Assembly (NCBI GenBank): GCA_034717395.1
Contig: JAYELJ010000049.1
Coordinates: 1-44,029, forward strand
Reading direction: 5' to 3'
Length of the DNA stretch: 44,029 nt
Source of the DNA: Patescibacteria group bacterium
GTDB lineage: Bacteria; Patescibacteriota; Gracilibacteria; JAYELJ01
Each line of letters begins with the position of its first letter. Position 1 is the first letter of the stretch. The position numbers were made by a program, and so were the translations under genes. Below the pieces are notes generated by a model that had not been told where the DNA came from, made no database searches, and saw only the letters and a list, made by a program, of their open reading frames with translations. Positions 1 to 44,029 of the stretch are shown one piece after another.

Positions 1-72
1 AGAACTTTCATTATTTGCAAAAAACATTCATATACTCGGATCTTACTAACTTATACTTTTATTTCAAATTCC

Positions 73-1188
73 ATGAAACATATCTTTCGCTTTATTCTCC
101 TATATCTATTTGTTTCTATCCCATCTGCACAAGCAGAGAGTTTTTTTGTAGATATCCCAGAAGATCATTGGGGTTATCCTTCTGCTCAATATGCTCAAGA
201 AAATAACTTTTTCAATATTGAAAACAAACAATTTCTTCCAACACAAGCTCTTACCCGTGGAGAAGTCGTTCAGATGATTCTTGTACAATCAGAAACAGAG
301 CTTATCACAACGATAGATACAACTTCTTCATTTTTAGATGTACAAACCGGGAGCTCTCTCTTTCCATATATCGAAACAGCCTATCAAAATGGTATCATCA
401 ATGGAGTTGGATCTGGAAGCTTTGCTCCTGATCAGCCAGTAACACGCGCACAATTCCTCAAAATCCTCTTTGAGACAAATCAAGATGTACCCCCAATAGA
501 CCTGATCAATAATTTTTCGGATATACAAGAGAGCCACTGGGCTATAGGCTATATTAGCTATGCAACCAACAAAAAGCTCGTATCTGGAATCAATGGAGAG
601 TTCAAACCAGATGAGCTAGTAACTCGCATACAAGGGGCAAAAATTCTATACCAATATGCTCACCCAGATAATAGCACGGATCAACCCAACACAAAACAAA
701 GCATACACAATACACAAGCATACGAAACTCTTCTGTGGTCTATGATCAATGCTTCTCGACAAGAAGAAGGAAAAGAAATATTAATACTAAACTCAGACCT
801 TTCAACAGCTGCCCGCCAACATGCACAATTTCTTGCAGAAAATAATTTAAGATCTAGCCATTGTGGCATTATCATCGAAGATAATCAAGAATGTCCTGAG
901 ACAGCTACTCCTTTTGCTCGTATTAGCGATGCGAATATTGAATATATATCTGCAGCAGAGAATATCTGATGGGCATCATCAAATACTCGATCAATCCTGG
1001 ATACTCTCTACCTTATCCACGCTGACAAAACATACGGAATGATTTCAGAACCAGAAAACGAAAACAATCATCGTGCCAATATCTTTGGAACATTCCACGA
1101 CTTCAATCAAATCGGTATAGGTATATACCTCAAAGAAACTGATGGGAAAAAAGAACTATTTATTGTGCAGAAATTTATCGAACAGTAA
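73..1188 (+). CDS. Secreted protein with three S-layer-homology (SLH) repeats and a C-terminal CAP/SCP (YkwD-like) domain
   Basis: Track ORF 73..969 has a signal-peptide-like N-terminus (MKHIFRFILLYLFVSIPSAQA) and three SLH-type repeats (F-x-D-[IV]..W....G..G.F.P...[LV]TR). It stops at TGA 967-969. The same frame stays open to TAA 1186-1188 and completes a CAP-like domain (AARQHAQFLAENN ... GWASSNTRS ... IGIGIY). Confidence 0.65.
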
Positions 1189-2548
1189 TAAAAAAACCGG
1201 TCTGGAATCGTGTTTCAATCATATCCCCATTTTGCAACACATAGGAGTCTTTTTGTTTTTTCTTATTGATTTTTGGTTGAGCAAGCTTCCTGTAACTATA
1301 TGGATACTGCTTTTTTAAAAAATCTCCTAATACCATCCCATTATCTACTGACACTATTTTCTTTTTATTAAGTGTTACAAAAATAGTGTTTTCAAATACC
1401 GTATCAATATGAGACGACTTTCCATATTGAATATCCTGCAATGTATTATTCAAAGACTCATGTAATTTCCTTTGTTGATCTGTCATTCTCTGTGATTTCT
1501 TAAAGTTCGAGTAGATAAAATGAGCCGCTTGACCTACAGAAGCCTCTCTATCCATCTCTTCTGTTCGTACCTGAACTTCTACCTTATGAATATCATCAAT
1601 TGTAAGAGTTGTATGAATAGAACGGTATCCATTCGATTTCGGGACAGCAATATAATCCTTAATACGTGATACATCTGGTTGAAAATGAGAATGCAGCAAA
1701 GTAAGCACTTTATAACAATCGAGTTCTGTTTGTGTAATAATACGAATAGCAAATAAATCATACACCTGATCGATAGATAACCCTTTAAGTATCATCTTCT
1801 TGTACAAACTATATATATGTTTGGTCCGAGAAGTTACCGTATACGATATACCAATAGTATCAAGTTGATGTTTTATATCTTCTTCAAATGTATGAAGAAA
1901 TTGTTCACTCAATTCTTTTTCTTCATACAATAAACTTTGTACTCTCTGATACTGATCCGGATACATCATTTCAAAAGCAATATCTTCCATTTTTTCTTTT
2001 ATCTGCCAAAGTCCCATCTGCGCTGCTATAGGAGCATAAATATACAATATCTCTTTGAGCACAGAGTCAGAAATATCATATAAGGACTCTTTGTAGAGTA
2101 GTAAACGAGTATAGATATCTAATATATATATATACATAGCTCTCAGATCATGAGATGCAATGAGAAACATAGAACGAAGTGATTCTAGATTCATCTTTTG
2201 CAAATTCATATCAAAATGAAACTGATCCAATTCATATATATCATATACCAATGTTTCCACCTCTTCTCACACTAACAATTGAACTTCTTTTCTATCTGTA
2301 GCGTTATGATAATATATTGGATACAACATCGCTGCTATGATCGTATTGTAATCTGCTTCAAATTCTACTAGTATAGAAATAAAGCGATAACAATGTTTTT
2401 TATATAACTCTAAATCGACCCCTCGGTTATACGATGGATTATATTTTGTAAAAAGGTACTTCATTGATGTATAAAACAACCGAGAAGTCTTTTCTTCTGG
2501 ATAAGTCTCTTCAATACGATATAAAAGAGTATCAAATAGCTCTGCCAT
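1175..2548 (-). CDS. RelA/SpoT-homologue (p)ppGpp synthetase with a degenerate N-terminal HD region and a TGS-like C-terminus
   Basis: Track ORFs 2267..2698 and 1175..2260 share a frame and are joined by TGA 2267-2269. Synthetase motifs are YAPIAAQMGLWQIKEKMEDIAF, FAIRIIT, GYRSIHTTL and VEVQVRTEEMDREA..GQAAHFIY. Start set at ATG 2546-2548 (MAELFDTLL). Stop is TAA 1175-1177. Confidence 0.75.
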
Positions 2549-2581
2549 GAATAAAATAACAATATAAATTCTGTATCTATT

Positions 2582-3712
2582 TTGACAACCACTCCTCCCA
2601 AAACATATCGTCTTTTGTTTAACGGATTTTTCCTCAGCAAACCATATACAGGAATAGGATATCATACTCAATATATGCTTCTCTCTCTTGCAAAACAAGA
2701 GTATTATACAAAAATACTATGTCTAGTCCCTCATAACTGTACTGTACCCCAATCCCTGCAGGATATAGATACAATACAGTACATAAAAATCCCACTACTT
2801 GGAAATAACTGGATATCTAAATTCTTCTGGGAACAAATATTTGGAGCTTTATATAGCCTTTTTCATTATAAATCACCAATATACAACCCCTATCCCTGTG
2901 CATTTTGGAGCAAGAGAAAAAACAAACAAATAGCCTGTGTTCACGATATTATCCCCTATGTACACAAAGAATACCAATCATCAACCCTCACAAAACTCCG
3001 TCTCCTATATGAAAAATGGATATGTGTATCTTTTGCTCAAATAGTGAGTGTATCACAATATTCTGCAAACCAAATCAAACACATGTGGAATACTTCCAGT
3101 ATCCCCGTGATATATAATGGGTACCCAGAAAACAATTCTCATATAACAGAAAACATATTCCCCGATATTTCTCAGAAACCTACTATAAAAGCCCTCTACT
3201 TTTGAGGGTATGATACAAGAAAAAATATTGAATATATGATCCAGTCGCTTATATATTTTAATACTGACAACTCTCAAGATATAGAATTGTCTCTTGTAGG
3301 AAAACCCCTCTTTACAAATAATCTGTACCAATCTCTCGACAGTATTCATCCTGGAAAGAATCTCACCATACATAAGCTATGACACCTTTCTGAACACGAG
3401 TTATCCAATACTATTCAAGAGCATGATATGGTTATTAGCCTCTCTTCAGAAGAAGGATTTAACCTCCCTCTTCTCCAGGGTATTATGAATAAAAAAATCA
3501 TCATTGCTTCTAATATTCCAATACACCAAGAAATCTATCCATACATCCCTCTTGTTTCTCTCACATCACCACAAAAAGCCTCACAAGATATCCTGAAAAA
3601 CATTCTAGAATGAACAACACAATATGAGAAACTCTTTCAGTATTGCCAACACAAATACAACTGGGAACAAATTAGTCGTACAATAATAACAATTTTATCA
3701 CCTTCCCGATAA
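2582..3712 (+). CDS. Family GT4/GT1 glycosyltransferase
   Basis: Track ORFs 2582..3205 and 3428..3613 are in the same frame. In-frame TGAs lie at 3203-3205 (YF-G-GYDTRKNI), 3380-3382 (KL-G-HLSEHEL) and 3611-3613. A GT1 C-terminal motif is present (SSEEGFNLPLLQGIMNKKIIIAS). Stop is TAA 3710-3712. The TTG start at 2582 is uncertain. Confidence 0.7.
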
Positions 3713-3939: not shown

Positions 3940-4452
3940 ATGTTCTCTCTCCTTGAAAATGAACATATCCATTACTTTACCAATAAACATCCTATATTAC
4001 TTATAGGGATCGTTCTTTTGCGAAGTATCAAAATTTTAATTCTCACCTGAGTATTTGTTCTATTTATACAATACATACCTACTTTCTCATTAGATAGAGA
4101 AGTGATACAATGAATATTTATCTGATTTTCTGCTATGATTCTATTTAATACACATAAATTATTCTTAGAGGTCTTTGAATACTTCTGACGAGGGGTGGTA
4201 GTATGCGATTCTCATGTAATTATCTTGCACAAAAGTTTATTCAGGGAAAACAAACAAGACATGATAGATATACTAAAAATCCAAGATATAAAAATCAATC
4301 AGCATGGAATCATCCAAGCTATCCTCAACTATGGTATTGTCAGCTTCATCCTCACATCAGGAGAAGTCAGTAAAGTTGCGCGATTTGTTCCTGATCCATA
4401 TCACCTTGTAGAACATATTCATCGGATAAAATTACAAAAAGAAACATGATAA
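3940..4452 (+). CDS. Membrane protein with a bacterial PH (bPH/YdbS-YdbT-like) domain
   Basis: The frame from ATG 3940 stays open through 5 in-frame TGAs into track ORF 4195..4449. The track stop TGA 4447-4449 is followed directly by TAA 4450-4452, which is the real stop. The N-terminus has TM helices. The C-terminus (IQDIKINQHGIIQAILNYGIVSFILTSGE) resembles bPH_2. Confidence 0.5.
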
Positions 4453-4539: not shown

Positions 4540-6975
4540 ATGAAAAAATATTTCAAAACAAAAATAAAAATTCTGAAAAAAATACTCCAATACATATTGG
4601 TAGTGACCTTGGTAATCACTAATATACATATTCCGATAGAATACGGATATGCGAATGAAGCAGAGTTTCTTTCTATAACAACCAATGAAGATTCATATTT
4701 AGTGAATGAAAGCATACAGTACGATCTTGAATTTAAGACACCACAAGATATTTATGGAATCGAATTTACTATTCCCTATAACGCTGCTCTTCAGTACCCT
4801 TCTGACATATCTCCGGAAAACTCAATAGGAGACTACAGCATCATACAAAACGAACAAACCAAGAGAAAAGTTCTGTGGGATGAAACCCCATACGGAAAAC
4901 ACTTTACAGTCATTCAGAATAAAAATTATGGTTTCTTTTCTAAAGACTCTCCAATCATTTCATTCCATATCAATCCTTTATTAGCAGGGAACCAAACCTT
5001 CTCCCTTACAGATGTTTCTTTTATCAATAGCTCGATTGAAATTCAGAACCACAATGATATTAGCAAAAGCATACAAATCTCATTACCTGATATCAATGGT
5101 TTCAAATATGAGAGTATCGATGATAGTAGTATTAAAATATCTTGGGACGAAATAGAAAACACCTTGCTCGATTATTATATTATCTATAAAAAGGCCCAAG
5201 GTGATACGAGTTTCAGCGAATACAAAAAAGTAAATAATAATTATTTCTATGAAGATATCTTAGAGAAAAACAATACCGAATATAAAGTCATAGGAAGTTC
5301 TAATAATATCAGAAGCTCATTAAACTCTGCACCATCCCTACTGTTTTCTCATAATGATACTAACGCTCCAACTACAGTAAGCTACATTATAACTACCGAA
5401 TCGAATGAAGGAATTCATCTTCTCTGGCCAATGAATCCTGAAAAAGATATTCTTCATTACAATATTTGGAAACAGAGTCCAAACGAAGAATTTATCAACA
5501 TAGGTCAATCACAAAGCAATAGTTTTCTTGATACAGATGTTCAATACCAACAAACATATCAATACTTTATTACTGTTCAAGATAACAACCAAAATATTTC
5601 AAGTGATTCAGAAATTATCTCCATCACCTATTCTATAGAAAAAGAAACAAGTATTCCTATATCAGATAATTGTTCTGAGAATATGTATTTCAACTGAGAG
5701 ACTGAATCATGTGAACAGATTTCGGATTATCCTGAAAATATTATTTTCCTAGATGCTGATAATGATAATATGGATGATAGTTGGGAAACAAAGCACTGAT
5801 TAGACCCAACAGACCCAAATGATGCATACCAAGATCCAGATAAAGATCTTTTGCCAAATATACAAGAATTTAAATATCAAACAAAACCTCGATTAGCAGA
5901 CAGTGATAAAGATGGATTTTCTGATAATATGGAGGTTCTCGAATGATCTGATCCAAATGATCTATATAGCTATCCAACAGACAATAATATAAATGGCTTA
6001 CCAGATGGATTTGAAAACACGCTTATCAAACAAAACCTTATTGCTCAAGACCAAGAAGTAGAAAGATTACGATCTCTTGATACGGATGGTGATGGATTAA
6101 GTGATGAAAAAGAATTATTACTGGGTACTGACCCTGAAAACCCAGATACCGATGGAGATGGACTCAATGATTGATCAGAGATCCTTGAATATCAAACAGA
6201 TCCTCTTTCCTGGGACGATATCGATCTTCTCCTTCAAAATATCGAACACCCGATTATTACAAATATATGAAAACATAATATTACTACAGATAACCAGCCA
6301 GTAATTAAAGGATTCTATAAACCTGAAGCTACACTCCAATTCTTTGCTCAATATCGCAATACTATCGAAAAGATTGCGCTTGGAGAAGTAACTATAGAAG
6401 AAGATGGTATATTCTTCCTCAAATCAAACACAGAACTCTCCGATGGTGAAATTCATATAATTATGTATGAAGACCTTACTCAATCAGAAACAAAACATAC
6501 AGGAATATTAGAAATCAATAGCAGCTTATCTGTATCAGCCCCTCAAATACTACTATTTGAGGGAAGAAAAATTGATATACATAGTACAGACATCATCACA
6601 ACAACGAACCAACAACCAAAAGTATACGGAAACAGTTATTATGGAAGTGATATTCGTGCTACTTGGCAGAGTCTTATTACAAGCTCCAGTCTTATATCAG
6701 ATACCAATAGTGGATGATTTGAAATTAAACCACCAAAAAAATTAGAAGCAGGAGAAGAACATACACTATCAATCTATAGTATCACACCAGATTGAGTACA
6801 AAGCAAAACAATTCAATTACAATTCTTCATAACAAATACAGATAACTATCTATCAACAAATAGTCTTAAAATAAGCATGCAGAGCACCCCTCTGATATTA
6901 TTTGAACTCTTTTTAATTTTAATTAGCTGATTTCTCTTCTTCTTTCTTATTGTAAAGCGAAAAGAAAATACTTAA
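4540..6975 (+). CDS. Large cell-surface protein: N-terminal signal/anchor, cohesin-like domain, FN3-like domains, thrombospondin type-3 (Ca-binding) repeats, C-terminal TM anchor
   Basis: Track ORFs 4540..5697 and 6463..6717 are in the same frame. About 8 in-frame TGAs are present, for example 5797-5799 in H-G-LDPTDPND. Repeats follow the pattern D-x-D-x-D-G-x-x-D...GTDP ([34 protein letters not shown]). The C-terminus is hydrophobic and followed by KRKENT. Stop is TAA 6973-6975. Confidence 0.75.
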
Positions 6976-7003: not shown

Positions 7004-7480
7004 ATGAATAAACAACAATCATCACACATATCGATAGAGTCATTATTTCACTATCAAGCCAAGGATTATCTATCTCATCATATGAATGAAATTATTCTAT
7101 GATCTGTAGAAACTATGCTGTGACAATATGATGTCGATAATAAAACCATATACTGATTAAAAACAGTACTCGATGAGCTCTGTAATAATGCATCAGAACA
7201 TGGTTCAGAACCATCCTCTTTTGTTCAATGTAAAATAGGTATTAAGAATAATGTCTTCTATATTACTATTGAAGATCCCGGTGATGGAAAACCAGAATTA
7301 ACACCAAGACAATTGCGTAATTTTATCATTCACAAAAACAAAGATATCCTGAAACATGAATGAAAAAGAGGTCGTGGCCTTACATTCATTGTTAACAAAT
7401 TAGCCGATAGTCTTCATATAACAAAGAGTTCGAAATGAGGTATTAAAATATCTTTTACAAAGAATCTTTTTTCTTCTTAA
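7004..7480 (+). CDS. Anti-sigma-factor-type serine kinase (HATPase_c_2; RsbW/SpoIIAB-like)
   Basis: This gene is absent from the track because it contains 5 in-frame TGAs. The frame is open from ATG 7004 to TAA 7478-7480. N-box, G1 and G2-like motifs are present (ELCNNASEHG, IEDPGDG, GKRGRGLTFI). Confidence 0.6.
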
Positions 7481-7884: not shown

Positions 7885-8172
7885 ATGATTCTTGAATATA
7901 TAATTATTAGCCTTCAGATATTCTTTGAACTTCTTTCATTGAGTATATTCCTATATGTAATCCTCAGTTGGTTTGTTTCTCCTTCTCAGTTTAATAAAAC
8001 TATTTTCCTAAGATATATTAGCAAAATATTTAACACTGTCATACAGCCAATCAGACACATAAGCCCTCGTATATGAGTTCTTGATTTGTCCCCTATTATT
8101 GCTATTGTACTTATAGAAATTGTTAAAGTAATCACTATATCCACCTTGTCTCAAATTATGATAGTTCTCTAA
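7885..8172 (+). CDS. YggT-family membrane protein
   Basis: Track ORF 7885..8076 stops at TGA 8074-8076. Read-through gives P-R-I-G-VLDLSPIIA, which matches the YggT G-x-[IL]-D-x-SP motif. Stop is TAA 8170-8172. Confidence 0.65.
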
Positions 8173-8352: not shown

Positions 8353-8470
<118 letters not shown>

Positions 8471-8514
8471 ATTACCCTCCTTTTTCTATATATATATAAT
8501 ATAGGGACAGTATA

Positions 8515-8590
8515 CAATAATTTATATTCAATATATGAGATGCATATCTATATCTTACCAGTAAATACTAGTTGATACAAGCAAACTAAA
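8515..8590 (-). other. 3' half of the long processing stem bracketing 23S rRNA
   Basis: This segment is reverse-complementary in blocks to 11574..11660. The shared blocks are attttttagttt, tatcaactagta, atgcatc and gaatataaattattg. Confidence 0.6.
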
Positions 8591-8591
8591 A

Positions 8592-11573
<2,982 letters not shown>

Positions 11574-11576
<3 letters not shown>

Positions 11577-11660
11577 TTTTAGTTTTAAATACTTATATCA
11601 ACTAGTAATTACTAGAGATACAGAAGATGCATCATCATATTCAGTGAATATAAATTATTG
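11574..11660 (-). other. 5' half of the 23S processing stem
   Basis: Pairs with 8515..8590 (see that entry). Confidence 0.6.
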
Positions 11661-11723
11661 CATTCTCTTTGTGATAAATACCACAAAGCCCTATATGTTA
11701 AAGATCAATTCGAAACACTTTTT

Positions 11724-11800
11724 TGGTGGAGCATAACGGATTCGAACCGTTGACCTCCTGCGTGCAAGGCAGGCGCTCTAGCCAACTGAGCTAATGCCCC
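11724..11800 (-). tRNA. tRNA-Ala (anticodon UGC), CCA encoded
   Basis: The reverse complement is ggggcattagctcagttggctagagcgcctgccttgcacgcaggaggtcaacggttcgaatccgttatgctccacca. It folds as a cloverleaf, carries the G3:U70 pair and has anticodon loop cttgcac. Confidence 0.95.
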
Positions 11801-11821
11801 AAATCCATTCTATTTTTCAAC

Positions 11822-11898
11822 TGGTGGGCGTACCTGGATTTGAACCAGGGACCTCATGATTATCAGTCATGCGCTCTAACCAGCTGAGCTATACGCCC
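11822..11898 (-). tRNA. tRNA-Ile (anticodon GAU), CCA encoded
   Basis: The reverse complement is gggcgtatagctcagctggttagagcgcatgactgataatcatgaggtccctggttcaaatccaggtacgcccacca. The anticodon loop is ctgataa. Confidence 0.95.
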
Positions 11899-11949
11899 AA
11901 ATCTATACAAACATAAATTTGTTAACAGCAATTTTTCAGATTTAACATC

Positions 11950-11968
11950 TGAAGTGTAATAGAGAAGT
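11950..11968 (-). other. 3' half of the 16S processing stem
   Basis: tgaagtgtaatagagaagt is the perfect reverse complement of 13631..13649. The pair brackets the 16S gene. Confidence 0.65.
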
Positions 11969-12058
11969 ACAACCAATAATAATCTCAATACATACCTATT
12001 ATAAATAATAAGTATGCTCAACCTAACTAAACATATAAATATGCTAGCTACTCCTTTG

Positions 12059-13570
<1,512 letters not shown>

Positions 13571-13967: not shown

Positions 13968-16631
13968 ATGAACGATATTGTTCTTATATCTATATATGTT
14001 GTAACCTGATATAGCCTATGACTATATATAAGTTATCAGGTTATAAAATCTATTGTCTTACTCTACGTTAAAAAAAGAGCTCAAAACAACATTAAGTATC
14101 TACAAGAAGAAAGAGAAAAGATTATCATCAAGATCACCACACCCAAAACAAACAACAAATGACCAAGAATGACAGAGCAACTCCTAGAATCTCTTCACAG
14201 CCTATATAAAGACATATGATTCTGGGAGAGCTTCAAAGGAACTGACTATCAAGAACAATTTTCATTTGAGATTGTTCAAGAAAAAGGGAATATCACTTTC
14301 TATATATGGACATACAATGACCTCTATGAATTCCTTTCAAACCAGATTTATGCTCAATACCCCAATGCTGAAATAGAAATCAGTGATGACTATATAGAAT
14401 CTTTTCGTGATTTTCAATCAGGAGACATGGTAGAACTCGAGCTTGAAGAAAATGAACTTTACCCTGTAAAAACTTTCAATCTCCTACAAGGAGGAAGTAA
14501 AGACGAATCAATTGATTCTTTGTCTGCTCTTCTAGCCCCTCTTTCAAATCTAGACCACAAACAAGAAACTATTATATTTCAATACATATTGACCCCAGAG
14601 CATGAGAAATGGAAAGAGAGCTCTCATAAGCTTGAACTTGCCATTGAAAAACAAGAAACTATAGCAAATAAAATAGCATCAGCATCTAAATTCCCTTTGT
14701 TGCTTAACATAGCCCTTCTCCCTTTCTCTATATTAGTCAAAATTATTCAAAAACTTGGAAAAAAAGAAGAAAACACCGAAGAAGAACAAAAAGAAAGCAA
14801 AGGTCTCAGCGACAAGGACAAAGGAAAGATACAAGCATTACAACAAAAAGAAGAGAAACCAGCATTTAGATGTATCATTAGAGCAGCTTATCTCAGAAAA
14901 GATCAGGATAAATCTTTCTCTAAAACAAAGATGCAGTCTATTACTGGTTCATTTAGACAGTTTAACAGTCAACACAATTCATTCATTCATAAGAAGCCTT
15001 TTCTTAAAGAGGGGCTCTGGGGGAAAAAACGAGATCTATCTTTTAAAGAAATCTATTCATTACTTAAAACACGATCTTTCAATAAACCAGGGATTCTTCT
15101 TAACATCGAAGAGATAGCAAGCGTATATCATTTGCCCAATACAAATGTTAATGTACCGAATATCCAATACACACCATATCAGAAACTTGAAGCACCCGTA
15201 AATCTCCCAACACCAGAAAATACAGATGAAGCTCTTACCATGATGGGATATACCAATTTCAGAAATCAGAAGAAACTATTCGGAATGACACCGAATGACA
15301 GAAGACGACATCTCTATGTCATATGAAAAACAGGTATGGGGAAATCAACCATACTAAGCAACATGATTCATGAAGACATCCAGATGGGACGAGGGGTTTG
15401 TGTTATCGACCCTCATGGTGACCTTGCTGACGACGCATTAGCATCTGTTCCTAAACACAGAGTAAAAGATGTTGTTCTCTTTGATCCTTCTGACCGAGAT
15501 AATCCAGTAGCTCTGAATATGTTTGATAATGAAGACCCTAATAAAAAACCTCTTATTGCCTCTGGTATTGTAGCGGTACTAAAAAAACTCAATGCTGATT
15601 CATGGGGACCCAGACTCGAATATATTCTAAGAAACACTACACTAGCACTTCTCGACTTCCCTGGAAGCACATTTCTTGGAATACTCCGCATGTATACAGA
15701 CGAGTACTTTCGAAACAGAGTGGTTAAGGAAATTCAAGATCCTGTAGTAAAACGATTTTGGATCGAAGAATTTGGCAAGCTAGAACAAAAACAAATATTG
15801 GAACAAGTAGGGTCTATTCAAAACAAAGTAGGACAATTCTTATCTAATTCTATTATTAGAAATATATTAGGTCAGACCAAGAGTAGTATTGATATTCGAA
15901 AAATTATGGATGAAGGGAAGATACTGATTGTAAACCTCTCAAAAGGGAAGATTGGAGAAGATAATGCTACCCTGCTTGGATCTATGCTTATCACAAAAAT
16001 ACAGTTGGATGTAATGGGACGAGCTGACATGAAAGAAGAAGATCGAAAAGATTTCTATCTCTATGTGGATGAATTTCAAAACTTTGCTACTGATTCATTT
16101 GGAACTATACTTTCTGAAGCTCGTAAATACAAACTCAACCTTACCATGGCCAACCAATATGTTGCACAAATGCCTGATTCTGTAAGAGATGCCGTATTTG
16201 GAAACATTGGTTCTATGGTTACGTTTCAAGTAGGTGTAGATGATACCCCTCTATTTGTAAGACAATACGGAGAACAAGTTACAGAGACAGATCTTATGGA
16301 GATCGGGAAATTCAAATACTATACAAGAATGCTTATCAATGGTATGCCATCCAATCCATTCTCTGTTGATGCACTTCCACCACCACGAGATGAAGTGGAC
16401 CATAATACTATTATTGAAGCTATTCGATACTCACGAGACAACTATACAAAAAAATCTTCAGAGGTAGAAGAAGAAATTGATAGCTGGGAGAAAAAATATG
16501 AAGATCCAAAAAAAGGAGAGAAAGAAAAAAAACTTGCTGATAAAAAATCAGCATATGAAGCCAAAAAAGCACAGCTTATTAAAGAAGGGAAATGGGATCC
16601 CGCAGGATTTAACAAAAAGAAAAATGGATAA
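13968..16631 (+). CDS. Membrane-anchored VirD4/TraG/TraD-like (type IV coupling-protein-like) P-loop ATPase with a Lys/Glu-rich tail
   Basis: The frame from ATG 13968 is open through 5 in-frame TGAs and joins track ORFs 14427..15326 and 15336..16631. The N-terminus has a TM helix. TGA 15324-15326 supplies the first Gly of Walker A (YVI-G-KTGMGKST). A Walker B/TraM-recognition-type motif is present (FYLYVDEFQNFAT). Stop is TAA 16629-16631. Confidence 0.7.
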
Positions 16632-26316: not shown

Positions 26317-26331
26317 AAGAATCTTACTTAA

Positions 26332-26967: not shown

Positions 26968-26993
26968 AACAAACTGGTTTAAAAGTATAAAAA

Positions 26994-27320: not shown

Positions 27321-27346
27321 GCAAATTTTAAAGATAACAAATAAAA

Positions 27347-27616: not shown

Positions 27617-27658
27617 AATTTATTTAAAATTAGAAATCTAGAAGCTAGGAAATAGCTT

Positions 27659-28501: not shown

Positions 28502-28521
28502 AATAAACAAAGGTTAATTAA

Positions 28522-28818: not shown

Positions 28819-28833
28819 TAGTTCACGATAATA

Positions 28834-29460: not shown

Positions 29461-29480
29461 GCATTTAGCAAGTTAAATTA

Positions 29481-30068
29481 CTAAGATTGCTTTCTAAGTA
29501 CTAGGGTTCCGTTGTTAGCCCCAGGAAGAGATCCTTTTACAAAAAGAACACCATTCTCTGAATCTACCTTACAAACCTTGAGTCTACTCAAAGTTGTTTT
29601 ACGAGCACCCATGTGCCCAGGCATTTTTTTACCAGGCATCACTCGTCCAGGATTTGTAGCGCCAGACGTCCCCCCGATTGCTCGAGTGTATTTCCCACCA
29701 TGACTCTGAGGTCCTCGTGAAAAATTCCAACGTTTGATTGCACCAGCAAAACCTTTACCAATAGATGTACCTGTTACACGAAGAAGATCTTCTTCTGTGA
29801 AATTCTCAGCACTAAGTAGAGAGCCTTTTTCAAAACCAGAAACATCATCTATACGGTATTCCGCATAACGTTTGTACTTCTGAGGAGATACTTTCCCTTC
29901 TTTTTTAGAAGAAGCACCAACCACAATAGCACTATAACCATCCGTTTCCACTGTTTTGATTTGAGTTACCTCGCAAGGTTCTACTTTTACAGCAGTTACA
30001 GGAGTAACAACTCCTTCTTTCGAAGTAAGAGATGTCATTCCCATTTTCTTTCCAATCAAAATCGACAT
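29481..30068 (-). CDS. rplC: 50S ribosomal protein L3
   Basis: Track ORF (LIGKKMGMTS...GKGFAGAIKRWNF). Confidence 0.92.
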   Translation of the reverse strand: MSILIGKKMGMTSLTSKEGVVTPVTAVKVEPCEVTQIKTVETDGYSAIVVGASSKKEGKVSPQKYKRYAEYRIDDVSGFEKGSLLSAENFTEEDLLRVTGTSIGKGFAGAIKRWNFSRGPQSHGGKYTRAIGGTSGATNPGRVMPGKKMPGHMGARKTTLSRLKVCKVDSENGVLFVKGSLPGANNGTLVLRKQS

Positions 30069-30132
30069 AACTAAGAAAGAAATAAATAAAAATGATTAGA
30101 GTAGCAAGGTAAGTCAGCATAACGCGACCTAT

Positions 30133-30189
30133 CCCGACACTTACAGACAATCATCATAACATAATTATGATTATCTGTAGTATGCCGGG
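30133..30189 (-). other. Long imperfect hairpin in the unusually long rpsJ-rplC spacer
   Basis: On the minus strand the sequence is atcccggcatactacagataatcataa-ttatg-ttatgatgattgtctgtaagtgtcgggat. About 25 positions pair, counting G-U pairs and one bulge. Confidence 0.5.
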
Positions 30190-30216
30190 ATGGAACCACA
30201 TTTAGCATCGATACAA

Positions 30217-30531
30217 CTACATCTTAATTTCTAACCCTACACCAGCAGGAAGACTGAGTCTTGAAAGAGCATCAACCGTTTTGGCTGTTGTTCCACTAAG
30301 ATCAATAAGTCTTTTATGAGTTCTTCTCTCGTACTGAAGACGAGATTTTTTGTTCACAAAAGTTGAACGCAAAATAGTGAATTTCTCTGTTTTCACTGGT
30401 AGTGGAATAGGCCCTGTTACAGACGCTCCACTTCTTTCCGCAGCTTCGATGATCATTTTAGCTGATTGATCAATCAGCTTGTGATCATACGATTTTAGCT
30501 TAATACGGATGCTGTCTTTTGAAGCCACCAT
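30217..30531 (-). CDS. rpsJ: 30S ribosomal protein S10
   Basis: Track ORF ([16 protein letters not shown]...[10 protein letters not shown]). Confidence 0.92.
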
Positions 30532-30851: not shown

Positions 30852-32099
30852 ATGTCTCGAGAAAAAGTCATTGCAAGTATCGATATCGGATCACAAAAAG
30901 TACGGTCTGTAATAGGTGTTCTTTCTGGAGAAGGGAAAAATGCTAAGGTTAATATTATTGGCTTAGGAGTTACCCCTTCTACTGGACTAAGAAAATGAGC
31001 CGTTATTGATATCGAAGAAACTATTCATTCTGTTATCCATTCCATAGAGGATGCTGAAAGAATGTCTGGTGAACATATCAAAGAAGTCTATGTATCTCTT
31101 GGAGGAGATCATCTAAACTCTCACACTTCTACTGGTGTCATATCGGTAGGAACTGGTGAAATCACTGAAGAAGATGTATATAGAGTCCTAGAAGCTTCCC
31201 AAGCAGGACAAATGAATAATGCAAACCAACGCATTATACGAACAATAGCAAGAAACTTTAGCATTGATGAACAACACGGCATCAAAGATCCTGTTGGCAT
31301 GTCAGGAAGAAGGCTTGAGGTCGATTCTCATATCATCACAGGGAATGACAATCATATAAAAAACCTTGAACGTTGTATAACAGGAGCAGGGTTGCATGTT
31401 GCTGACTTTATTCCTGCTTCATTAGCTGCTGCAGAATCAGTACTCAACAGACGACAAAAAGAACTTGGAGTAGTTTCTATAGATATTGGAGCAGGATCTA
31501 CAAGTCTTGTAGTATACGAAGAAGGAACTCCTATATATACTTCGATTCTACCAATCGGAGGAGAAAGCATTACAAACGATATTGCTATTGGGCTTCGAGT
31601 ATCACTCGATACGGCAGAGAAGCTCAAACAAGAATATGGTCATGCTATTCCAGAAGAAGTTTCTAAACGAGAAGAAATTCATCTCAAAGATATTTCTAAA
31701 GTAGATACTCATTCTGTAGAGAAACACCAGCTCAGCTTGATCATATCTGCTAGACTGAATGAGATCTTCTATATGATCAAAGAAGAACTCAAATATATTC
31801 ACCGAGATGGAATGCTTCCTGCTGGAGCAATCATCACAGGAGGAGCTGTTCGTATGCCTGGGGTAGCTGATATAGCACGAGACACTCTCAACTTGCCAGT
31901 ACAAATTGGATTCCCGCAAGATATTGATGGGATTGTCGAACATATAGATGACCCAAGTTATGCTACTGCTATTGGACTTCTTCTCTACGGAGGAAGACAT
32001 GGAAGCAAATCTAACAACGGAGCATCTCCTATAAATATTAAAATGCCTGATTTTCTTGGAGCATTTGGAGATTTATTTAAAAATCTTCTCCCAAAATAA
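30852..32099 (+). CDS. ftsA: Cell division protein FtsA
   Basis: Track ORFs 30798..30998 and 31062..32099 are in the same frame. TGA 30996-30998 falls in GLRK-G-AVIDIEET, a conserved Gly of FtsA. The start is MSREKVIASIDIGSQK. Actin-fold motifs are present. Confidence 0.88.
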
Positions 32100-33366: not shown

Positions 33367-36300
33367 TTATTCAAATAAACTGTGTATCAAGTCAACTTCT
33401 TCCCCCTTATATTCTACACTCCATGCTTCTGGCTTGAGAACAATACGACCTACAGAATTGTACTGCGCCCGAGCAGAATGAATATCTAGAATATCTCACT
33501 TCTCGACAATCACTCCATCAGGACGAGAGACTTCTATATTTCCTAGTTGAAAACTCCATGCTGTTTTTTCTTCTATTGATTGGGTCAGAGAAAAATCTTT
33601 AAACAAATCTGTTTCTGAGAGAGTAACCTGTTCTGGATCAACTATAGGCTCTGGACGAATATCTGCTACAGACTTACTCAACACTTCTATCGTATCCCTC
33701 TTGTAAAGTTTAATAGTGAGTCCTTCTTTGGTTTTCCAATATTTTCCTGTCAAAAACACTTGATCTCCTTCTCAGATATTTCCGAGATCTCTTCCTATTG
33801 CATCCAGACGAAACACACGATTCCCAGCTGCAAAATACGCATGTTTCGAATCAAGAACTTTGGTAATAATCCCCTCTATTTCTATATCTTGTTTTTCATT
33901 TGAGAAAATAATCTCTGCAATATTTGAAATTTTCTTTCTGATGACTTTATTAGTGTGTATGAGGCCTTGAGAAGAAAGTGATTTTGTTTTTTTAGAAATG
34001 CTTTTTTGCGTATGTTCTATCTCTGTATCCAACCAATCCGAGAGTATTGTTTCTTTTATCTTAGTTACAAGGGAGACTTCTTGGTCCTCTTTTCTCTGTT
34101 CTTTTTCCTGTTTGAGAGATTGTTTTTCTTCTTTCGTTTTTTCCTGAGTGTTCGTCATATATTCAGATACTACACGATCTTGCTGTTGATCAGAAACGGG
34201 AGCCCAAAGACCAAGTTCATTTTCTCGAGCGAATATTTCAGCCTGGCGAAATGGTTCCATTTTTTCAAATGGATATTTGGTATAAGCAAATGCATACCCA
34301 TCTTCAAGAATTTTCTGATTATACAAAACACTATCAAGATACACATACCCAAGAATTCGATAATATCGATCAAAGATATCTTGATCAAACTCGATACGAA
34401 CCTGTGCTTCTGTTAATTTTTCTTTTGAATACCTGGAAGCTTCGATACCAAAATATTGTACTGTTTTACGAGGATCTACGGTCTCTGGAGTATCGATACC
34501 TATCATACGAACAGGAAACACTCACTGTTCATTATTACTACAAATAAAAGTATCTCCATCTATCACTCGGTCTACCTGACATTCTATAAAATCTTCTGAA
34601 AGAAACTCTTTTCTCTCAGGACTTGTTCGTTCTTTTCGAAAACGATTAGTGAGTGGATTACGAGTCCAAGATATGTTTTCTGTAGCGGTTCTATAACTTA
34701 CACATGAGTGTTGAATATCTTCTGTATCATAGAGACAATACTTCCCATCTTTATTGATCAAAGAAAAATCTACACCTTGGTCTCATTTTGTAGTTCCATT
34801 TGTGTAATATAGAAAATATGTATTTGGGTCTAACAATTGCGACTCTTTGACTGTATACTTCTTACCTTTCTTCTCATCCTGAAAATACCACCCTTTGATA
34901 GAACAAGACTGAGAATCTTTCGAGAGAAGCTCGATATACTCTTTTCCTTTATCTGGACCTTCTGGGTTAGGGAGAATCTCTGTAATTTGAATATCAGTAC
35001 AGGCTTTCTCTCAAGTATCATGAGAGATTTGAGTCTCATGGTTCGATGAAACAGAAGATCTATATGCAGCAGTATAAGACCCTCAGCCTCAGCCACTGGA
35101 AGGCTTTTGAGTAACTGACACTATATTTTCCAAACATGTTTCTGCAGAAAATTGATCTGTAACACAATACGTAACAGAATAATCTCAGACGACATCATAT
35201 GTATGCGCATTCGGGTTACGATATTCCGTGCCAAAACCAGCATATATAAATCCATCTCCAAAATCCCAAGAATAATAGAGATTACTTCATTGGTCTGGAT
35301 CTACTGTTCCATCTCCAGTGAGATTGAGGCTATACCCGGCATATATATCCCAAGAAGGTTTAGATCATTGAAGATTCCAAGAAGGAACAGGGACTTGGTT
35401 TTTGAGTAGTTCGACTGTGATACCTGTACTGCTCGATCCTCCGTAGCTATCTGACACGGTAAGAGTAATATCGTATAAACCTGAGCCTGTGTAACTTATT
35501 TCGAGAGGATTGTTGAAACTAGAACCTGTACCTCTCAGCACCGATCCGTTCCCGAAGTCCCAATCATAGTACAGAATATCCCCATCTGGGTCGGTGGAAT
35601 TCTCTCCGGTGATGTTGATAGATCCATTTTCTACTCCGAGAACCACTACTCCAGATGTGGAGAACTCAGCATTTCCTTGAAGATCTACCTGTGCCACAGG
35701 AACTGCATTAACCCAGGTGTTTTCTTCTCCTGGAGTTGGGTGATCAAATAGTTCAATACTTGCTCACGAAGAAAAATTTCGAATCCACGATTGATCTTCT
35801 CCTGTAATATCATAAGAAAAAGTATCTACAGAGTATCATTGATAAAAAAGTTCGAGCCAACCAGCGCTATTACTCAAATTGGATGCAGAAAATTCTTGCC
35901 AAAAATATGCATCCTCTAACCCATCAAACCAAACTAAAGGAATAATAATATATTCACCTGGTTGTATATATTCCGGAACTACTTCATAGAATATCAAATC
36001 AGAAAAATCTAAATTCCAATAAAAAGCATCTACCCCATCACTATTGGAGAGAGACAGATACATATCTTCCATTGCATATGACTGAACACCAGCATTATAT
36101 AACTCTATCCATTCATACCCAGTATCTGATCCTGTTGGATTTGCATACACCTCAGATACCCATAAAGGGACTGACTGCCAAACAAAAACCTCTTCTGTGA
36201 TTGCTTCTACTGATATATATGAACCTGACACGGTCCATACTGGAGAAAGCGTATAAGAAAGATCTGTATACACAGTAGCTCCTGTATCAAGAAATATGCC

Positions 36301-36957
36301 TGTGCCTGAGATATTCTCTGACAACAGAGCACACGTTCCTGAAACACAGCGATCTATATCAACCAGATACTCTATACCTGCAAAACTCTGACTCTGCTCC
36401 CAATACACCGAAATATCAGACCCAGAAATACTATATCCTCTACCAGACAAAACAATACCATCCAAAAAATCTATGGTGTTCGACTGACCTGGAGTTGCTA
36501 GCCCACCAGTGTATCCATAATAAGAAACCCAAGAATCACCAGCATCTGGAATACGACCAAGAGAATATCATTTTTCGAGAGAGGGAATAGCATCGGTTCC
36601 ATATTCTACAGTATCGATAATCGATCCAGAAGCATCTCTGAGTTCAACATGAGCTCAACCATTAGCCAAGGCTCTTTTTCATAGTGTTTGCAAAAAATAC
36701 CCAGTAGCTGATACCACATCTCCCGACTCAAAAGTATGTTTCTGTTTATCATTGGACCACACACTAGCACCACTGAGGTTTACCGACCCAGACCCTGAAT
36801 TATATATCTCAATCCACTCTTGCTCTCCTGATTCTGGGGCAGAAAGAAACTCGTTGATATATAACTGTGCAGATGCAGTACCATATCAACAAGTAATCAT
36901 ACATACTCCTACTATAAGAAAGGAGAATATCCGAGACAGATAAGAAGAGAATATCAT
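33367..36957 (-). CDS. Secreted multidomain nuclease: signal peptide, 3 lamin-tail domains (LTD), 2 PKD domains, staphylococcal-nuclease (SNase) domain, Lys/Glu-rich linker and an uncharacterised C-terminal domain (~1196 aa)
   Basis: One frame is open from ATG 36955-36957 to TAA 33367-33369 (3591 nt) through 16 in-frame TGAs. It joins track ORFs 35836..36465, 35365..35697, 34522..34761, 33772..34521 and 33496..33759. LTD motifs are LYINEFLSAPESGEQEWIEIYNSG, WVSEVYANPTGSDTGYEWIELYNAG and ITEILPNPEGPDKGKEYIELL. PKD motifs are DPDGDILYYDWDFGNG and YYSWDFGDG. SNase motifs are VRMIGIDTPE, DRYYRILGYVY and ARENELGLWA. Confidence 0.8.
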
Positions 36958-38256: not shown

Positions 38257-39828
38257 TTATTTCCTTGCTATTTTCTTTCCAAGCCCTGGAATTATAACAA
38301 ATACCACTACCGAGAAAAAGATAAAAAATACTGCAAGCCAATAATATTTAGAAACAGAAGCTGGCAGAACCTCTATATAGATATCTTGACTAATTTGTTC
38401 GCTGCTATTATCTATTGCTACAAGTTCAATACGATATACCCCTAAACTATCAAAGGAATAGGACAACTCCGTTTCATGAGACAGGAGTCTTCCTTGATAT
38501 AGCCACTGGAGAGATTCGATAGATCCATCTATATCATAGACATCCACGGCAGAGAGAGAAAACAATTCTCCTTTTTCTACCTGTACTGAATTGGGAATAT
38601 TCACAAAAACAGGAGCTTTATTATATCACTGAGTATCCTGGTTATCTCCTATTCCATCACTATCGGTATCTTTCCATTCTGTATTATCCAGAGGAAATAG
38701 ATCATCTATATCCGCTACTCCATCATTATCATCATCAGAGTCTTTTGTGTCTCCGATGCCATCCCCATCGGTATCTTTCCATTCTGATGGTTCATTTGGA
38801 AATGGATCTGCAAAATCTGCTACCCCATCATTGTCATCATCCATATCAGCATTATTTCCTATTCCATCGTTATCAGTATCTATAGACTCCGTTGGGTTGT
38901 AAGGGAACTGATCCTCCGAATCAAGAACACCATCATTGTCCATATCAGGATTGGTGGGATCCAACCCTTTTTCTATCTCCTGCGTATCAGATATACCATC
39001 GTTATCATCATCAGCATCTTTTGCATCTCCGATACCATCTCCATCTGTATCTGCTACTTCTTCTTTATCTGTTGGAAAAGCATCAACTATATCATCAACT
39101 CCATCATTATCATCATCAGCATCTTTTATGTCTCCTAAACCATCTCCATCTGTATCTTGTACTTCTGTATCATCGAGAGGAAAATGGTCCTCTTTATCTG
39201 ATACACCATCTCTATCGGTATCATAATTAAGAGGGTTTGTGCCTCTTTGAATTTCCTCCTGATCGGTATATCCATCTCCATCATCGTCAATATCTGTATT
39301 GTTCCCAAGACCATCCCTATCGGTATCGAGCCATTCTGTTGGATCAAAAGGAAAATCATCATAAATATCTTCGACATTATCCCCATCATCATCTAAATCA
39401 TCTCTATCTCCGATCCCATCCCCATCAGTATCTATATCTACAAACATTTTTGAAAACAGCTGCTTAGTAACACTCCCATTGTATTCTACTATCTGAGCCT
39501 CGAAATCATGATCCCCATCTGTAGCGACCCAATCAAAAAACACTGTATCTGAAGATCCTGCTACCACTGAGATAGCCTGATCTACACCTACCTGCTGACC
39601 TCATTGCAAAGTATCAATCACACGAACGAGACCAGTCGCATCCTCATCTCCACTATTTGAAACTTTGATATAAATACGAACAGAATCTTCTGCTAAGATT
39701 TGCTCTGGAATATGCCAAACATCCGTAGAACGAATAAATAGATCAGTAGCAGCAAATGCAAAAGGAGCTGTTACTAACAAGCAACAACTTAGCACTACAG
39801 CCGACACTGTTTTTATCGATGTATACAT
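38257..39828 (-). CDS. Secreted, C-terminally anchored surface protein: signal peptide, CARDB-like domain, about 9-10 thrombospondin type-3 Ca-binding repeats, Ig/PKD-like domain, TM anchor
   Basis: Track ORFs 39601..39828, 38626..39567 and 38257..38604 are in the same frame. They are joined by TGA 39601-39603 and TGA 38626-38628. The total is 1572 nt. Repeats follow the pattern DTDGDGIGDxKDxDDDNDG. Stop is TAA 38257-38259. The ATG directly abuts the yebC stop (TAAATG). Confidence 0.75.
38640..39440 (-). repeat. Intragenic tandem array of about 105-nt (35-codon) Asp-rich repeat units
   Basis: For example, 39004..39051 and 39109..39156 match at about 42 of 48 positions by eye (atcatcatcagcatctttt...ccatctccatctgtatc). 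Further diverged copies lie near 38728 and 38830. Confidence 0.7.
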
Positions 39829-42008: not shown

Positions 42009-42025
42009 TTGTATAGAGTGTATTA

Positions 42026-43129
42026 ACTAAAAATTCGTAAAATATCTTGGTAGGTAACCGATACCATAAACACAAGCAGCAGTATCATTCCTCCAGCATG
42101 AATATAATTTTCCCATTTCACTGAAAGACCACGCCCAATGACTCACTCTATCAGAAGAAAGAATGCGCGACCCCCATCCAAAGCAGGGAATGGAAGTGCA
42201 TTGAGCACCGCGAGAGAAATAGATATCAGAGCAAGGAATTTGAGCCCTTCGGTCCACCCAGCATCTGCTGCAGCAGATGTCATCTGTACAATACCCACTG
42301 GACCAGAAAGACCTTCTGGAAGAGCAAATGATTCTATAAGTGTATTAAATAGCGTCACAAAACCTTGGATTGATCTATCTACTAGGTGTATCGCATCTTG
42401 GCAAGAGGTGATAAATGCATCCACTATCCCTAGCTGGATTTTATCGAGCTCTATACCAAGAACCAGCATCATCCCGAGCTTTCCTGTGCTATCAGGGGTA
42501 GCAGTTATTTGAATCAGATCTTCTGATTCTCCTCGTTTAATATCCAGAATAAATTGAGATTTGTCTTGTATTGCTTGCTGATAGGTTTCAAGATCACGAA
42601 CTTGAATGTCATCTATGGAAACAATCAGGTCACCAGATATCAGACCAATATCTTCTGCCAAAGAACCTTCTATCACCTGGTGTACCATAATCGAAGCATC
42701 TTTTTCTTCGATCATTTGATTATAGTATTGATTTCCTTCCATCGGTGTCACTCCTATCATATACGCTGTCATCATGATCCCAATCGCAGCAATAAAATTG
42801 AATATCACTCCTGCTGAGATGATAAGCAACCTCTGCCAAGGATTTTTCCCGGTATACGAATCAGGCTGATCGGATATTTCCAGATCTTTTTTAGGATCAA
42901 AATCTGATTGCCCTTTGAGCTGAACAAAACCCCCAATAGGAAGCCAATTGAGAGAGTAAATAGTATCTCCAATTTTCTTTCCCCACGCACGAGGAGGCAT
43001 CCCGATTCCAAACTCTTCCACTTTGACCCCTGTTACCCTTGCAGCCAAATAATGACCCAGCTCATGGATAAATATAAGAAAAGAAAATCCAAGAACTACA
43101 AATAAAATATTTAAAATCGTATCGAACAT
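42026..43129 (-). CDS. rseP: RIP site-2 metalloprotease RseP (M50 family)
   Basis: Track ORF 42143..43129 carries HELGHYLAA, a PDZ region and NALPFPALDGG. The frame continues through TGA 42143-42145 to TAG 42026-42028 and adds the last TM helix. Confidence 0.88.
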
Positions 43130-43162
43130 ATCCGCAAAAAATAGTAAAAAATAAAGTGTTTT

Positions 43163-44029
43163 CTATGAAGGACCGAGGAGGTGTTTCCCAACCTGATAAC
43201 TATCTCCTGCTCATAACGTAAGAACAAGATACTGTTTTTCTGGATCAGAATCAATGAACTTTTGGATGTATTCAGCACTATGATCAAAATCTGGAATATA
43301 ACACACATCGTTATCATTATCTGCTATAGCACGAGCAAAGGTATAACTCAATGAAGCATCATCTTTTTCTTCACGGGCTGATGCGAATATATCATTGATA
43401 ATCGTCAGATCTGCATCTGCAAAACTCTGTACAAACCCATCCCACAATTCACGCGTACGAGTATAGGTATGAGATTGAAAATCACAAATAATAAAATGTT
43501 TTGGGAAAAACTCTCGAAAAGCTTTCAAAGTTTTTTGGATTTCATCTGGATGGTGTCCATAATCATCATATACCAATGTGTTTTCTTTGTACTTCCCTAT
43601 ATATTCTTGCCTTCTTGTGGTTCCAGAAAACCCTTGAAGAGCTCGATGAATCTCACAAGCCCCAAAACCTTGTCATCGTAAATATGCAATAACAGCAAGG
43701 GCATTGGAGATGTTATGCATACCTGGCACAGCTATCTGAAAATTCCCAATTGGTTTTCCTTTTTCGTATACCAAGAACTGTTGATTTCCTGAGATAATAC
43801 TCGTACGGAGAGCATAATAATCTGCTTCTTTATCATCAATAGAATATGTGATCACTTTTGATGAAATATTGAGTGTATCTTTTTCTTTGTGTTCAATAAC
43901 AACCGACCCTTCTGCATCAAGAGAATCAACAAATTCTTGAAAAGCTGATACATAATCATCTTCTGTTTTGAAATAATCTGGGTGATCATAGTCAATATTG
44001 GTAATGATAATATCTTGTGGCTTATACTG
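43163..44029 (-). CDS. murC: UDP-N-acetylmuramate--L-alanine ligase, 3' part (5' end lies outside the window)
   Basis: Same-frame pieces are joined by TGA 43673-43675 and TGA 43211-43213. Motifs are ITNIDYDHPDYF, VPGMHNISNALA, DDYGHHPDEI and LVLTL-G-AGD. Stop is TAG 43163-43165. Confidence 0.85.

Follow-up and report, generated by a model that had tools for sequence, protein, structure and literature searches.

The stretch of DNA analysed here (44,029 nt, GC content 37.2%; the window, meaning this whole stretch) is contig JAYELJ010000049.1 of a Patescibacteria group bacterium. It carries an rRNA operon, the S10-spc ribosomal protein cluster and a number of well-conserved protein genes, several of which contain TGA codons in frame; the subject of this report is the meaning of that codon. 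Reading TGA as sense, we curated a set of 47 genes comprising 11,940 codons, and its conserved genes, together with the RNA features of the window, are as follows (aa, amino acid; X followed by a number denotes the residue encoded by TGA in the protein concerned).

8354..13569, minus strand: rRNA operon (16S, tRNA-Ile GAU, tRNA-Ala UGC, 23S, 5S), from Rfam and ARAGORN; 5S at 8354-8468, 23S at 8586-11580, 16S at 12059-13569
16668..17933, minus strand: histidyl-tRNA synthetase (HisRS), TGA at 16929 (aa 335), 17019 (aa 305) and 17514 (aa 140)
19096..19461, plus strand: RNase P protein (rnpA), TGA at 19378; the Pfam Ribonuclease_P match spans the TGA, and the column is uninformative
20216..21505, minus strand: SecY, TGA at 21239 (aa 89); the Pfam and PDB alignments pass over the TGA without a break
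21525..30531, minus strand: S10-spc ribosomal protein cluster, TGA-poor, with no L30 gene between S5 and L15
21982..22446, minus strand: ribosomal protein S5, TGA at 22420 (aa 9), in the variable N-terminus
22469..22816, minus strand: ribosomal protein L18, TGA at 22481, four codons before TAA
26332..26967, minus strand: ribosomal protein S3, TGA at 26917 (aa 17); the column holds D, T, G or N in standard-code genomes
30852..32099, plus strand: FtsA, TGA at 30996 (aa 49); G in 3 of 3 solved FtsA sequences
43163..44029, minus strand: C-terminal part of MurC, the gene continuing beyond the window; TGA at 43211 (aa 273 of the fragment) and at 43673 (aa 119)

In the 47-gene set, 65 in-frame TGA codons are spread over 20 genes, whose 7,836 codons amount to 66% of the coding sequence, and no in-frame TAA or TAG and no frameshift interrupts any gene. 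The genes terminate in TAA (36) or TAG (11) and never in TGA, a count that refers to the window and not to the genome. With TGA taken as sense, the longest stop-to-stop open reading frame (ORF) extends from the 434 aa of the standard code to 1268 aa, the control reassignments giving 440 aa for TAG and 495 aa for TAA. With X placed at each TGA, Pfam alignments run uninterrupted over the codon in SecY, tRNA-synt_His, HGTP_anticodon, Ribosomal_L18p, Ribonuclease_P and YGGT, as well as in Peptidase_M50, Lactamase_B (4 TGA), HATPase_c_2 (5 TGA), DUF87, Glycos_transf_1, HD_4, CAP, LTD and PKD, and the alignments to solved structures (PDB) of HisRS, SecY, FtsA and MurC likewise continue across it. 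The codon occurs in the essential genes secY, hisS, ftsA, murC, rpsC, rpsE and rplR. Independently assembled Logan contigs from SRA run SRR26901930 cover positions 15231-27920 and 39823-44029 and are 99.98-99.99% identical to the window, with one mismatch each, so that the sequence is not an assembly artefact. The standard-code gene calls on these contigs break exactly at the TGAs, yielding MurC as pieces of 118 and 121 aa, SecY as pieces of 88 and 335 aa, S3 of 137 aa, L18 of 111 aa and a fragmented HisRS.

An earlier note on this DNA, made from the letters alone, had proposed that UGA is a sense codon, most likely glycine (translation table 25), that standard-code ORFs are cut at TGA, that roughly 65 TGAs lie in frame and that no gene needs TGA as its stop. 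The counts given above agree with this on each point, 20 of the 47 genes being split or shortened under the standard code and the Logan gene calls being fragmented alike. The ten positions it quoted are all in-frame TGA codons, its glycine linker reads GGC TGA GGC TGA GGG as quoted, and its piece counts fit the three TGAs (four pieces) of HisRS, the one of SecY, codon 17 of S3 and the 16 of a nuclease described below. Taken together, the sequence puts it beyond reasonable doubt that UGA is read as a sense codon in the window.

The earlier note had also suggested scoring the TGA columns against homologues and Pfam models, and both forms of this check prefer glycine. In a Pfam substitution test, nine residues were put at 41 TGA sites in 16 non-redundant families and the hmmscan bits were summed; the totals are 924.7 for G, 899.1 for A, 891.3 for S, 889.3 for N, 879.9 for T, 874.4 for R, 863.8 for D, 858.6 for C and 852.8 for W, the lowest, so that the lead of glycine is 25.6 bits over Ala, 66 over Cys and 72 over Trp. 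G is top in 10 of the 16 families, including L18p, YGGT, DUF87 (Walker A), Glycos_transf_1 and Lactamase_B, together with LTD, PKD_4, TSP3_bac and HD_4, and effectively so in HGTP and SecY (within 0.5 bit of the top). In a homologue column test, log2-odds were computed for each of the 20 amino acids over 22 TGA columns, the aligned residues being taken from standard-code ribosomal protein clusters (32 loci), SecY and HisRS relatives, high-scoring segment pairs of the nuclease domains and PDB alignments. G totals +22.3 and T +2.5, a value for Thr that double counting of the SecY site has inflated; all other residues are negative (D -12.9, N -17.5, S -18.7, A -23.3, Cys -39 and W -52.2). Glycine is thus the best-supported meaning of UGA by two independent tests, as judged from alignments.

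Among the conserved genes, the L18 X112 column is G in 20 of 21 standard-code genomes, and reading through the TGA restores the conserved C-terminal GLxF. HisRS X335 is G in 34 of 46 sequences, and the W found in 11 others is the table 4 translation of TGA in recoded relatives, as exemplified by a database sequence (P0156) with QLWDEAK and its NCBI twin (P0154) with QLGDEAK. The two solved MurC sequences both have G opposite X273, in an alignment that runs on to the C-terminus. Further TGA sites lie in the following genes for surface, enzyme and other proteins.

73..1188, plus strand: secreted protein with Pfam SLH and CAP domains, TGA at 967; the CAP alignment spans the TGA
1175..2551, minus strand, start approximate: RelA/SpoT + HD_4 protein (Pfam RelA_SpoT, HD_4), TGA at 2267
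2636..3712, plus strand, start approximate: GT4/GT1 glycosyltransferase, TGA at 3203, 3380 and 3611
3940..4452, plus strand: membrane protein, an ORF reading with no family hit, TGA at 4048, 4111, 4123, 4186 and 4447
4540..6975, plus strand: large secreted TSP3-repeat protein with a C-terminal membrane anchor, TGA at 5695, 5797, 5944, 6172, 6268, 6715, 6793 and 6928
7004..7480, plus strand: HATPase_c_2 anti-sigma-factor-type kinase, TGA at 7100, 7121, 7154, 7361 and 7436
7885..8172, plus strand: YggT family protein, TGA at 8074; YGGT scores 43.6 bits with G and at most 41.3 with the others
13968..16631, plus strand: DUF87/TraG-type P-loop ATPase, TGA at 14007, 14019, 14160, 14217 and 15324
17999..18862, minus strand: ComEC-type metallo-beta-lactamase (MBL) domain protein, TGA at 18047 and 18050 (tandem), 18122, 18263, 18356 and 18557
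33367..36957, minus strand: secreted LTD-PKD-LTD-SNase nuclease of 1,196 aa (Pfam LTD, PKD, SNase), 16 TGA, at 33496, 33772, 34522, 34783, 35011, 35083, 35089, 35185, 35287, 35365, 35764, 35836, 36568, 36655, 36679 and 36886
38257..39828, minus strand: TSP3-repeat/PKD surface protein (Pfam TSP_3, TSP3_bac, PKD_4), TGA at 38626 and 39601
42023..43129, minus strand: RseP-type site-2 protease (M50 + PDZ), TGA at 42143; M50 spans the TGA, and the column is uninformative

In the glycosyltransferase, the Glycos_transf_1 match covers TGA 3203 and 3380 and scores 32.0 bits with G, the other eight residues giving 28.5 or less. Lactamase_B covers four TGAs and scores 31.9 bits with G, 26.7 with A and 19.9 with W; TSP3_bac scores 50.6 bits with G against at most 47.5 for the others, and TGA 5797 corresponds to G in three paralogous repeat copies; the HD_4 alignment crosses TGA 2267, where G is the best-scoring residue. 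The TGA at 15324 stands at the first Walker A position (xKTGMGKST), for which the consensus is [AG]xxxxGK[ST], and the DUF87 scores are 39.2 bits for G, 39.1 for A and 32.4 for W. In the nuclease, G is the commonest residue aligned with X101, X130, X374, X557, X591 and X625, reaching 99 of 121 at X591 in the PKD domain. Two recoded genomes served as positive controls: in L025 (Patescibacteria UBA6489, 27.5% GC), 79% of 142 TGA columns are Gly, and in L040 (GCA_028698305.1, 22% GC), TGA makes up 78% of Gly codons.

Several observations weigh against glycine as the single meaning of the codon. G is not best in 6 of the 16 Pfam families, clearly so in tRNA-synt_His, in HATPase_c_2, in which a single alignment covers all five TGAs and R scores 47.5 bits against 41.2 for G, and in the weak CAP hit (26.7 bits for Trp against 25.3 for G). 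Of 120 close relatives, 111 have Thr in the column of SecY X89; of 17 distant relatives, 6 have G in it, and the codon at this position in the recoded genome L025 is likewise TGA. HisRS X305 aligns with A, V or F and X140 with I, C, M, S or L, that is, with hydrophobic or small columns, and MurC X119 aligns with T, E or D in a variable column. For about one third of the TGA sites, the protein or segment concerned has no informative homologues, and the sites of the membrane protein at 3940..4452, which matches no family, are uninformative on meaning. In addition, ARAGORN and Rfam found only tRNA-Ile(GAU) and tRNA-Ala(UGC) in the window, and hence no tRNA with a UCA anticodon; ARAGORN found no such tRNA in 13 relative loci either, and no release-factor gene is present in the window or the fetched relative loci. 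The statement of the earlier note that TGA falls on conserved glycines stands for L18, HisRS X335, FtsA, MurC X273, Walker A, the MBL protein, the glycosyltransferase, PKD and TSP3, and fails for SecY X89, HisRS X140 and X305, S3 X17, S5 X9 and MurC X119. Its example of HisRS motif 3 (TGA 17019) proved to be one residue off, since the conserved glycine of the motif occupies the next column.

The codon is used sparingly. TGA occurs at 5.4 per 1000 codons in the genes of the window, making up 65 of 853 Gly codons (7.6% of GGN + TGA), and at 28.8 per 1000 in the two off-frames. It is found in 3 of 3,102 codons of ribosomal proteins and in 62 of 8,838 elsewhere, and is thus about 7 times rarer in the former, a pattern suggesting that UGA is selected against where expression is high, for example through a low-abundance tRNA or slow decoding. 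L040 has 46.7 TGA per 1000 codons, and the conserved-Gly columns of L025 hold 104 TGA against 60 GGN; compared with these heavy users, the window is a light user of TGA.

Among the alternatives, one is that UGA is sense but not purely glycine, encoding another small residue (Ala, Ser or Thr) or being decoded ambiguously through residual release factor 2 (RF2) or a near-cognate tRNA-Trp. Several TGA columns hold Thr, Ala, Val or Asp in homologues, and the runner-up is Ala in the Pfam test, 25.6 bits under G, and Thr in the column test; the avoidance of TGA in ribosomal proteins is expected of slow or leaky decoding, and for table 25 an ambiguity of U34 wobble pairing between UGA and UGG is on record (PMC8629427). 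However, Ala, Ser or Thr would be hard to reconcile with the invariant-glycine sites of L18, HisRS X335, FtsA, MurC X273, PKD X591 and the SecY of a sister lineage (see below), G exceeds every tested alternative both in total and in 10 of 16 families, and a scarce cognate tRNA would account equally well for the avoidance of the codon in highly expressed genes. We regard an impure glycine codon as improbable.

A second alternative is that UGA encodes tryptophan (table 4), as in Mycoplasmatales and several insect endosymbionts. This is what public gene callers have chosen for the relatives, whose database sequences carry W at TGA (the sister SecY, P0002, and the HisRS sequences P0156-P0166, with 4-7% W), and Trp is slightly best in the weak CAP hit. 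Yet these W residues occupy invariant glycines, where the NCBI twin has G (P0154 for P0156); Trp ranks last of the nine residues in the Pfam test and strongly negative in the column test; and where standard-code genomes have conserved Trp columns, the window has TGG in 8 of 8 and never TGA. The tryptophan reading is accordingly very unlikely. The window resembles table 4 organisms in the change of UGA from stop to sense, in an AT-leaning reduced genome and in an expected loss of RF2, but differs from them in the residue, Gly at the TGA sites with Trp sites kept as TGG, and in phylum.

A third alternative retains the standard code, the TGAs being real stops in a decaying genome (pseudogenes) or errors of sequencing or assembly; only the default status of table 11 speaks for it. 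The interruptions number 65 and every one is TGA (65:0:0 for TGA, TAA and TAG), frameshifts are lacking, essential genes are hit, none of the 47 genes ends in TGA, the independent assembly is near-identical, and the pieces on either side of a TGA invariably share one frame and a domain alignment that carries on over the codon. The 65:0:0 distribution and the domain continuity refute this alternative in practice, leaving it a negligible probability. Although UGA is a selenocysteine codon in many bacteria, and a cysteine codon in Euplotes, either meaning is excluded in practice by the distribution of the sites (65 in 44 kb, in structural, ribosomal and surface proteins), by the deficit of Cys in both tests and by the lack of any known selenoprotein family among those involved, and its probability is vanishingly small.

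Glycine therefore remains the favoured meaning, and we assign a probability of about 0.93 to the reading that the window derives from an uncultured bacterium of the Patescibacteria (candidate phyla radiation, CPR), within the Gracilibacteria/Absconditabacteria radiation, and that the ribosomes of this bacterium translate UGA as glycine (NCBI translation table 25). Because neither a tRNA(UCA) nor a release-factor gene lies in the window or the relative loci, the decoding mechanism can be proposed only by analogy with the clade: a dedicated glycine tRNA with a UCA anticodon, aminoacylated by glycyl-tRNA synthetase (GlyRS), would decode UGA, and RF2 would have been lost, leaving RF1 to end translation at UAA and UAG alone. 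For the radiation, both a GlyRS-charged tRNA-Gly(UCA) and RF2 loss are established according to Campbell 2013, as cited in PMC13293708, and UGA as Gly, tRNA-Gly(UCA) and RF2 loss are described for it in PMC8629427, 10.64898/2026.05.24.727570 and PMC13293708. The Gly identity elements expected on the tRNA(UCA) are G1:C72, C2:G71, G3:C70 and U73 (criteria in PMC8629427). As the earlier note had said, the code is already described for Gracilibacteria and Absconditabacteria, and has been known since 2013: table 25 was reported in 'Candidatus Gracilibacteria' (BD1-5/GN02) and Absconditabacteria (SR1) by Campbell 2013, Rinke 2013 and Hanke 2014, as these are cited in PMC8629427, PMC13293708 and 10.64898/2026.05.24.727570.

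The position of the window within this radiation is worth considering against the distribution of the two codes. The GTDB class Gracilibacteria (Peregrinibacteria, Abawacabacteria) uses table 11, and the class JAEDAM01 (BD1-5 and Absconditabacterales) table 25 (10.64898/2026.05.24.727570; PMC13293708). With JAEDAM01, the window shares UGA read as Gly, stops at UAA and UAG only, the CPR-type absence of L30 at the spc locus, large secreted surface proteins, the nuclease, a GC content (37%) inside the reported 21-53% range and a place beside a heavily recoded Patescibacteria genome in the ribosomal protein tree. JAEDAM01-type loci differ in their far heavier use of TGA (L040, L025) than the 7.6% of Gly codons in the window, and two recoded HisRS groups (L040, L041) share a PNPase…MurG-PAP2-HisRS synteny, the MurG-PAP2-HisRS arrangement being absent around the window HisRS. 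The standard-code members of the class Gracilibacteria (Peregrinibacteria, Peribacterales, Abawacabacteria; often 'Ca. Gracilibacteria' at NCBI) include the nearest SecY and HisRS relatives, but use TGA as stop. The gTranslate preprint of 2026 (10.64898/2026.05.24.727570) notes that the orders GCA-2401425 and JAYELJ01 in the GTDB class Gracilibacteria look like table 25 users and lack RF2, and its authors suspect that these genomes are misplaced members of JAEDAM01. Such orders, recoded beside or among standard-code Peregrinibacteria/Abawacabacteria-type lineages, lie where the SecY tree puts the window and its sister, and the window may belong to this kind of lineage.

The closest relative is a Logan contig from SRR17886269 (L035, encoding the SecY P0002), with 71% SecY identity. 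It carries two in-frame TGAs at invariant SecY glycines (LLT-G-GQL and WL-G-E), for which the window has GGT and GGA and the database translation (L035 753-2042) has W, at aa 62 and 166; the sister lineage is thus also recoded, and TGA and GGN interchange between the two. The nearest named relatives by SecY (52-56% identity) and HisRS (33-38%) are 'Ca. Peregrinibacteria', Peribacteraceae, 'Ca. Gracilibacteria', Abawacabacteria and 'Patescibacteria group' sequences. An L2-based search of genome contigs, using six exact 8-mer peptide patterns that miss true relatives, returned only 45-56% relatives of mixed phyla.

All trees are distance-based and thinly sampled, with long branches. In a concatenated ribosomal protein neighbour-joining tree (18 proteins, 2,841 columns, 24 taxa), 98 of 100 bootstraps unite the window with the recoded L025 and with L039 ('Ca. 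Gracilibacteria'), and within this trio L025 and the standard-code L039 pair in 78-96% of quartet bootstraps; the recoded HisRS contigs L040 and L041 hold no ribosomal proteins and are therefore absent from it. The SecY tree, with wider sampling, places the window and P0002 as sister to standard-code sequences of the class Gracilibacteria (83% of bootstraps), and the HisRS tree, built with G, W and X masked, recovers the two recoded groups as the sister of the window (96%). Neither the SecY nor the ribosomal protein tree nests the window inside the heavily recoded branch. From these trees, the window organism is placed in the Gracilibacteria/Absconditabacteria radiation of Patescibacteria, its exact branch differing among them, and it may stand outside the classic recoded class JAEDAM01. 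It is conceivable, though on balance doubtful, that the window and its sister form a lineage outside JAEDAM01, beside or within the standard-code class Gracilibacteria, with a low, possibly early-stage usage of UGA as Gly. If this outlying placement were true, the change of UGA to Gly would be older than thought and reversed in standard-code lineages, or would have arisen more than once.

Two 'Ca. Gracilibacteria' genomes, L038 and L039, were considered as low-usage users of table 25 and rejected, because both terminate at TGA (in L039, L14 at 5859-6227 ends …APEVL-TGA, overlapping the L24 start); their use of the standard code agrees with the literature split between the classes Gracilibacteria and JAEDAM01. 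L037 has TGA stops, and neither an in-frame TGA nor a TGA stop was found in L036. A six-frame ORF-coverage metric was also tried as a code classifier and discarded as too confounded by GC content, except in the extreme case of L025. L038 is apparently annotated with table 25, its YceG (11821-12870) being extended four codons past the TGA stop, which is the opposite annotation error.

The window shows traits of the Patescibacteria/CPR, grouping with CPR genomes in the neighbour-joining tree and having no uL30 at the spc locus. The gap between rpsE and rplO is 13 nt (21968-21982) and holds no rpmD (L30), although uL30 could in principle be encoded elsewhere; rplK (L11; 19716-20144) stands alone with no adjacent rplA (L1), and rplI (L9; 37032-37481) is present. 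The ribosomal protein complement at these loci is CPR-like. The secY gene is not followed by adk, map, infA, rpmJ or rpsM and meets a convergent rpmH-rnpA-rplK block (18940-21505), unlike the standard-code relatives L037 and the P0006 (Peregrinibacteria) contig, in which adk and map come after secY.

What the sequence adds is a further lineage of a known radiation, new and poorly sampled, that uses a genetic code already described, and its novelty is modest unless the outlying position is confirmed. The code nevertheless determines the annotation of the window, as the earlier note had stressed: under table 11 some two thirds of the coding sequence (20 of 47 genes) is cut short or split, and table 4 gene calls put false tryptophans at glycine sites. 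Public protein databases already contain W-laden table 4 sequences of the clade, and these distort alignments, hidden Markov models and trees; an excess of W at conserved Gly columns is a usable marker of hidden table 25 sequences. Sparsely sampled, moderately GC-rich light users of UGA such as this one are useful for asking when and how often the change of UGA to Gly arose.

Some further features of the window may be mentioned. The independent Logan contig matching 39823-44029 (L033) stops exactly at the right end of the window, 44029, inside murC, and a scan of metagenome contigs for this right end gave no match; that both assemblies end there suggests a shared breakpoint (a repeat or a coverage drop) just past 44029. 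An exact look-up found the FtsZ sequence of the window not to be on record, and nothing was found in the literature for the SRA and assembly accessions. The convergent SLH/CAP and RelA/SpoT genes overlap by 14 nt at their 3' ends (1175-1188). The membrane protein ORF at 3940-4452 ends in TGA-TAA (4447-4452), so that its last residue is Gly or the pair is readable as a tandem stop, and the ComEC-type MBL gene has two consecutive TGAs (18047-18052) 15 codons before its TAA. The large secreted or surface proteins, namely the nuclease (33367-36957), the two thrombospondin-type-3 repeat proteins (4540-6975 and 38257-39828) and the SLH + CAP protein (73-1188), would fit an episymbiotic or predatory, DNA-scavenging lifestyle. 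Finally, the DUF87/TraG-type coupling ATPase adjoins hisS and the ComEC-type MBL gene (13968-18862), and the genes of this neighbourhood may be DNA-uptake machinery.

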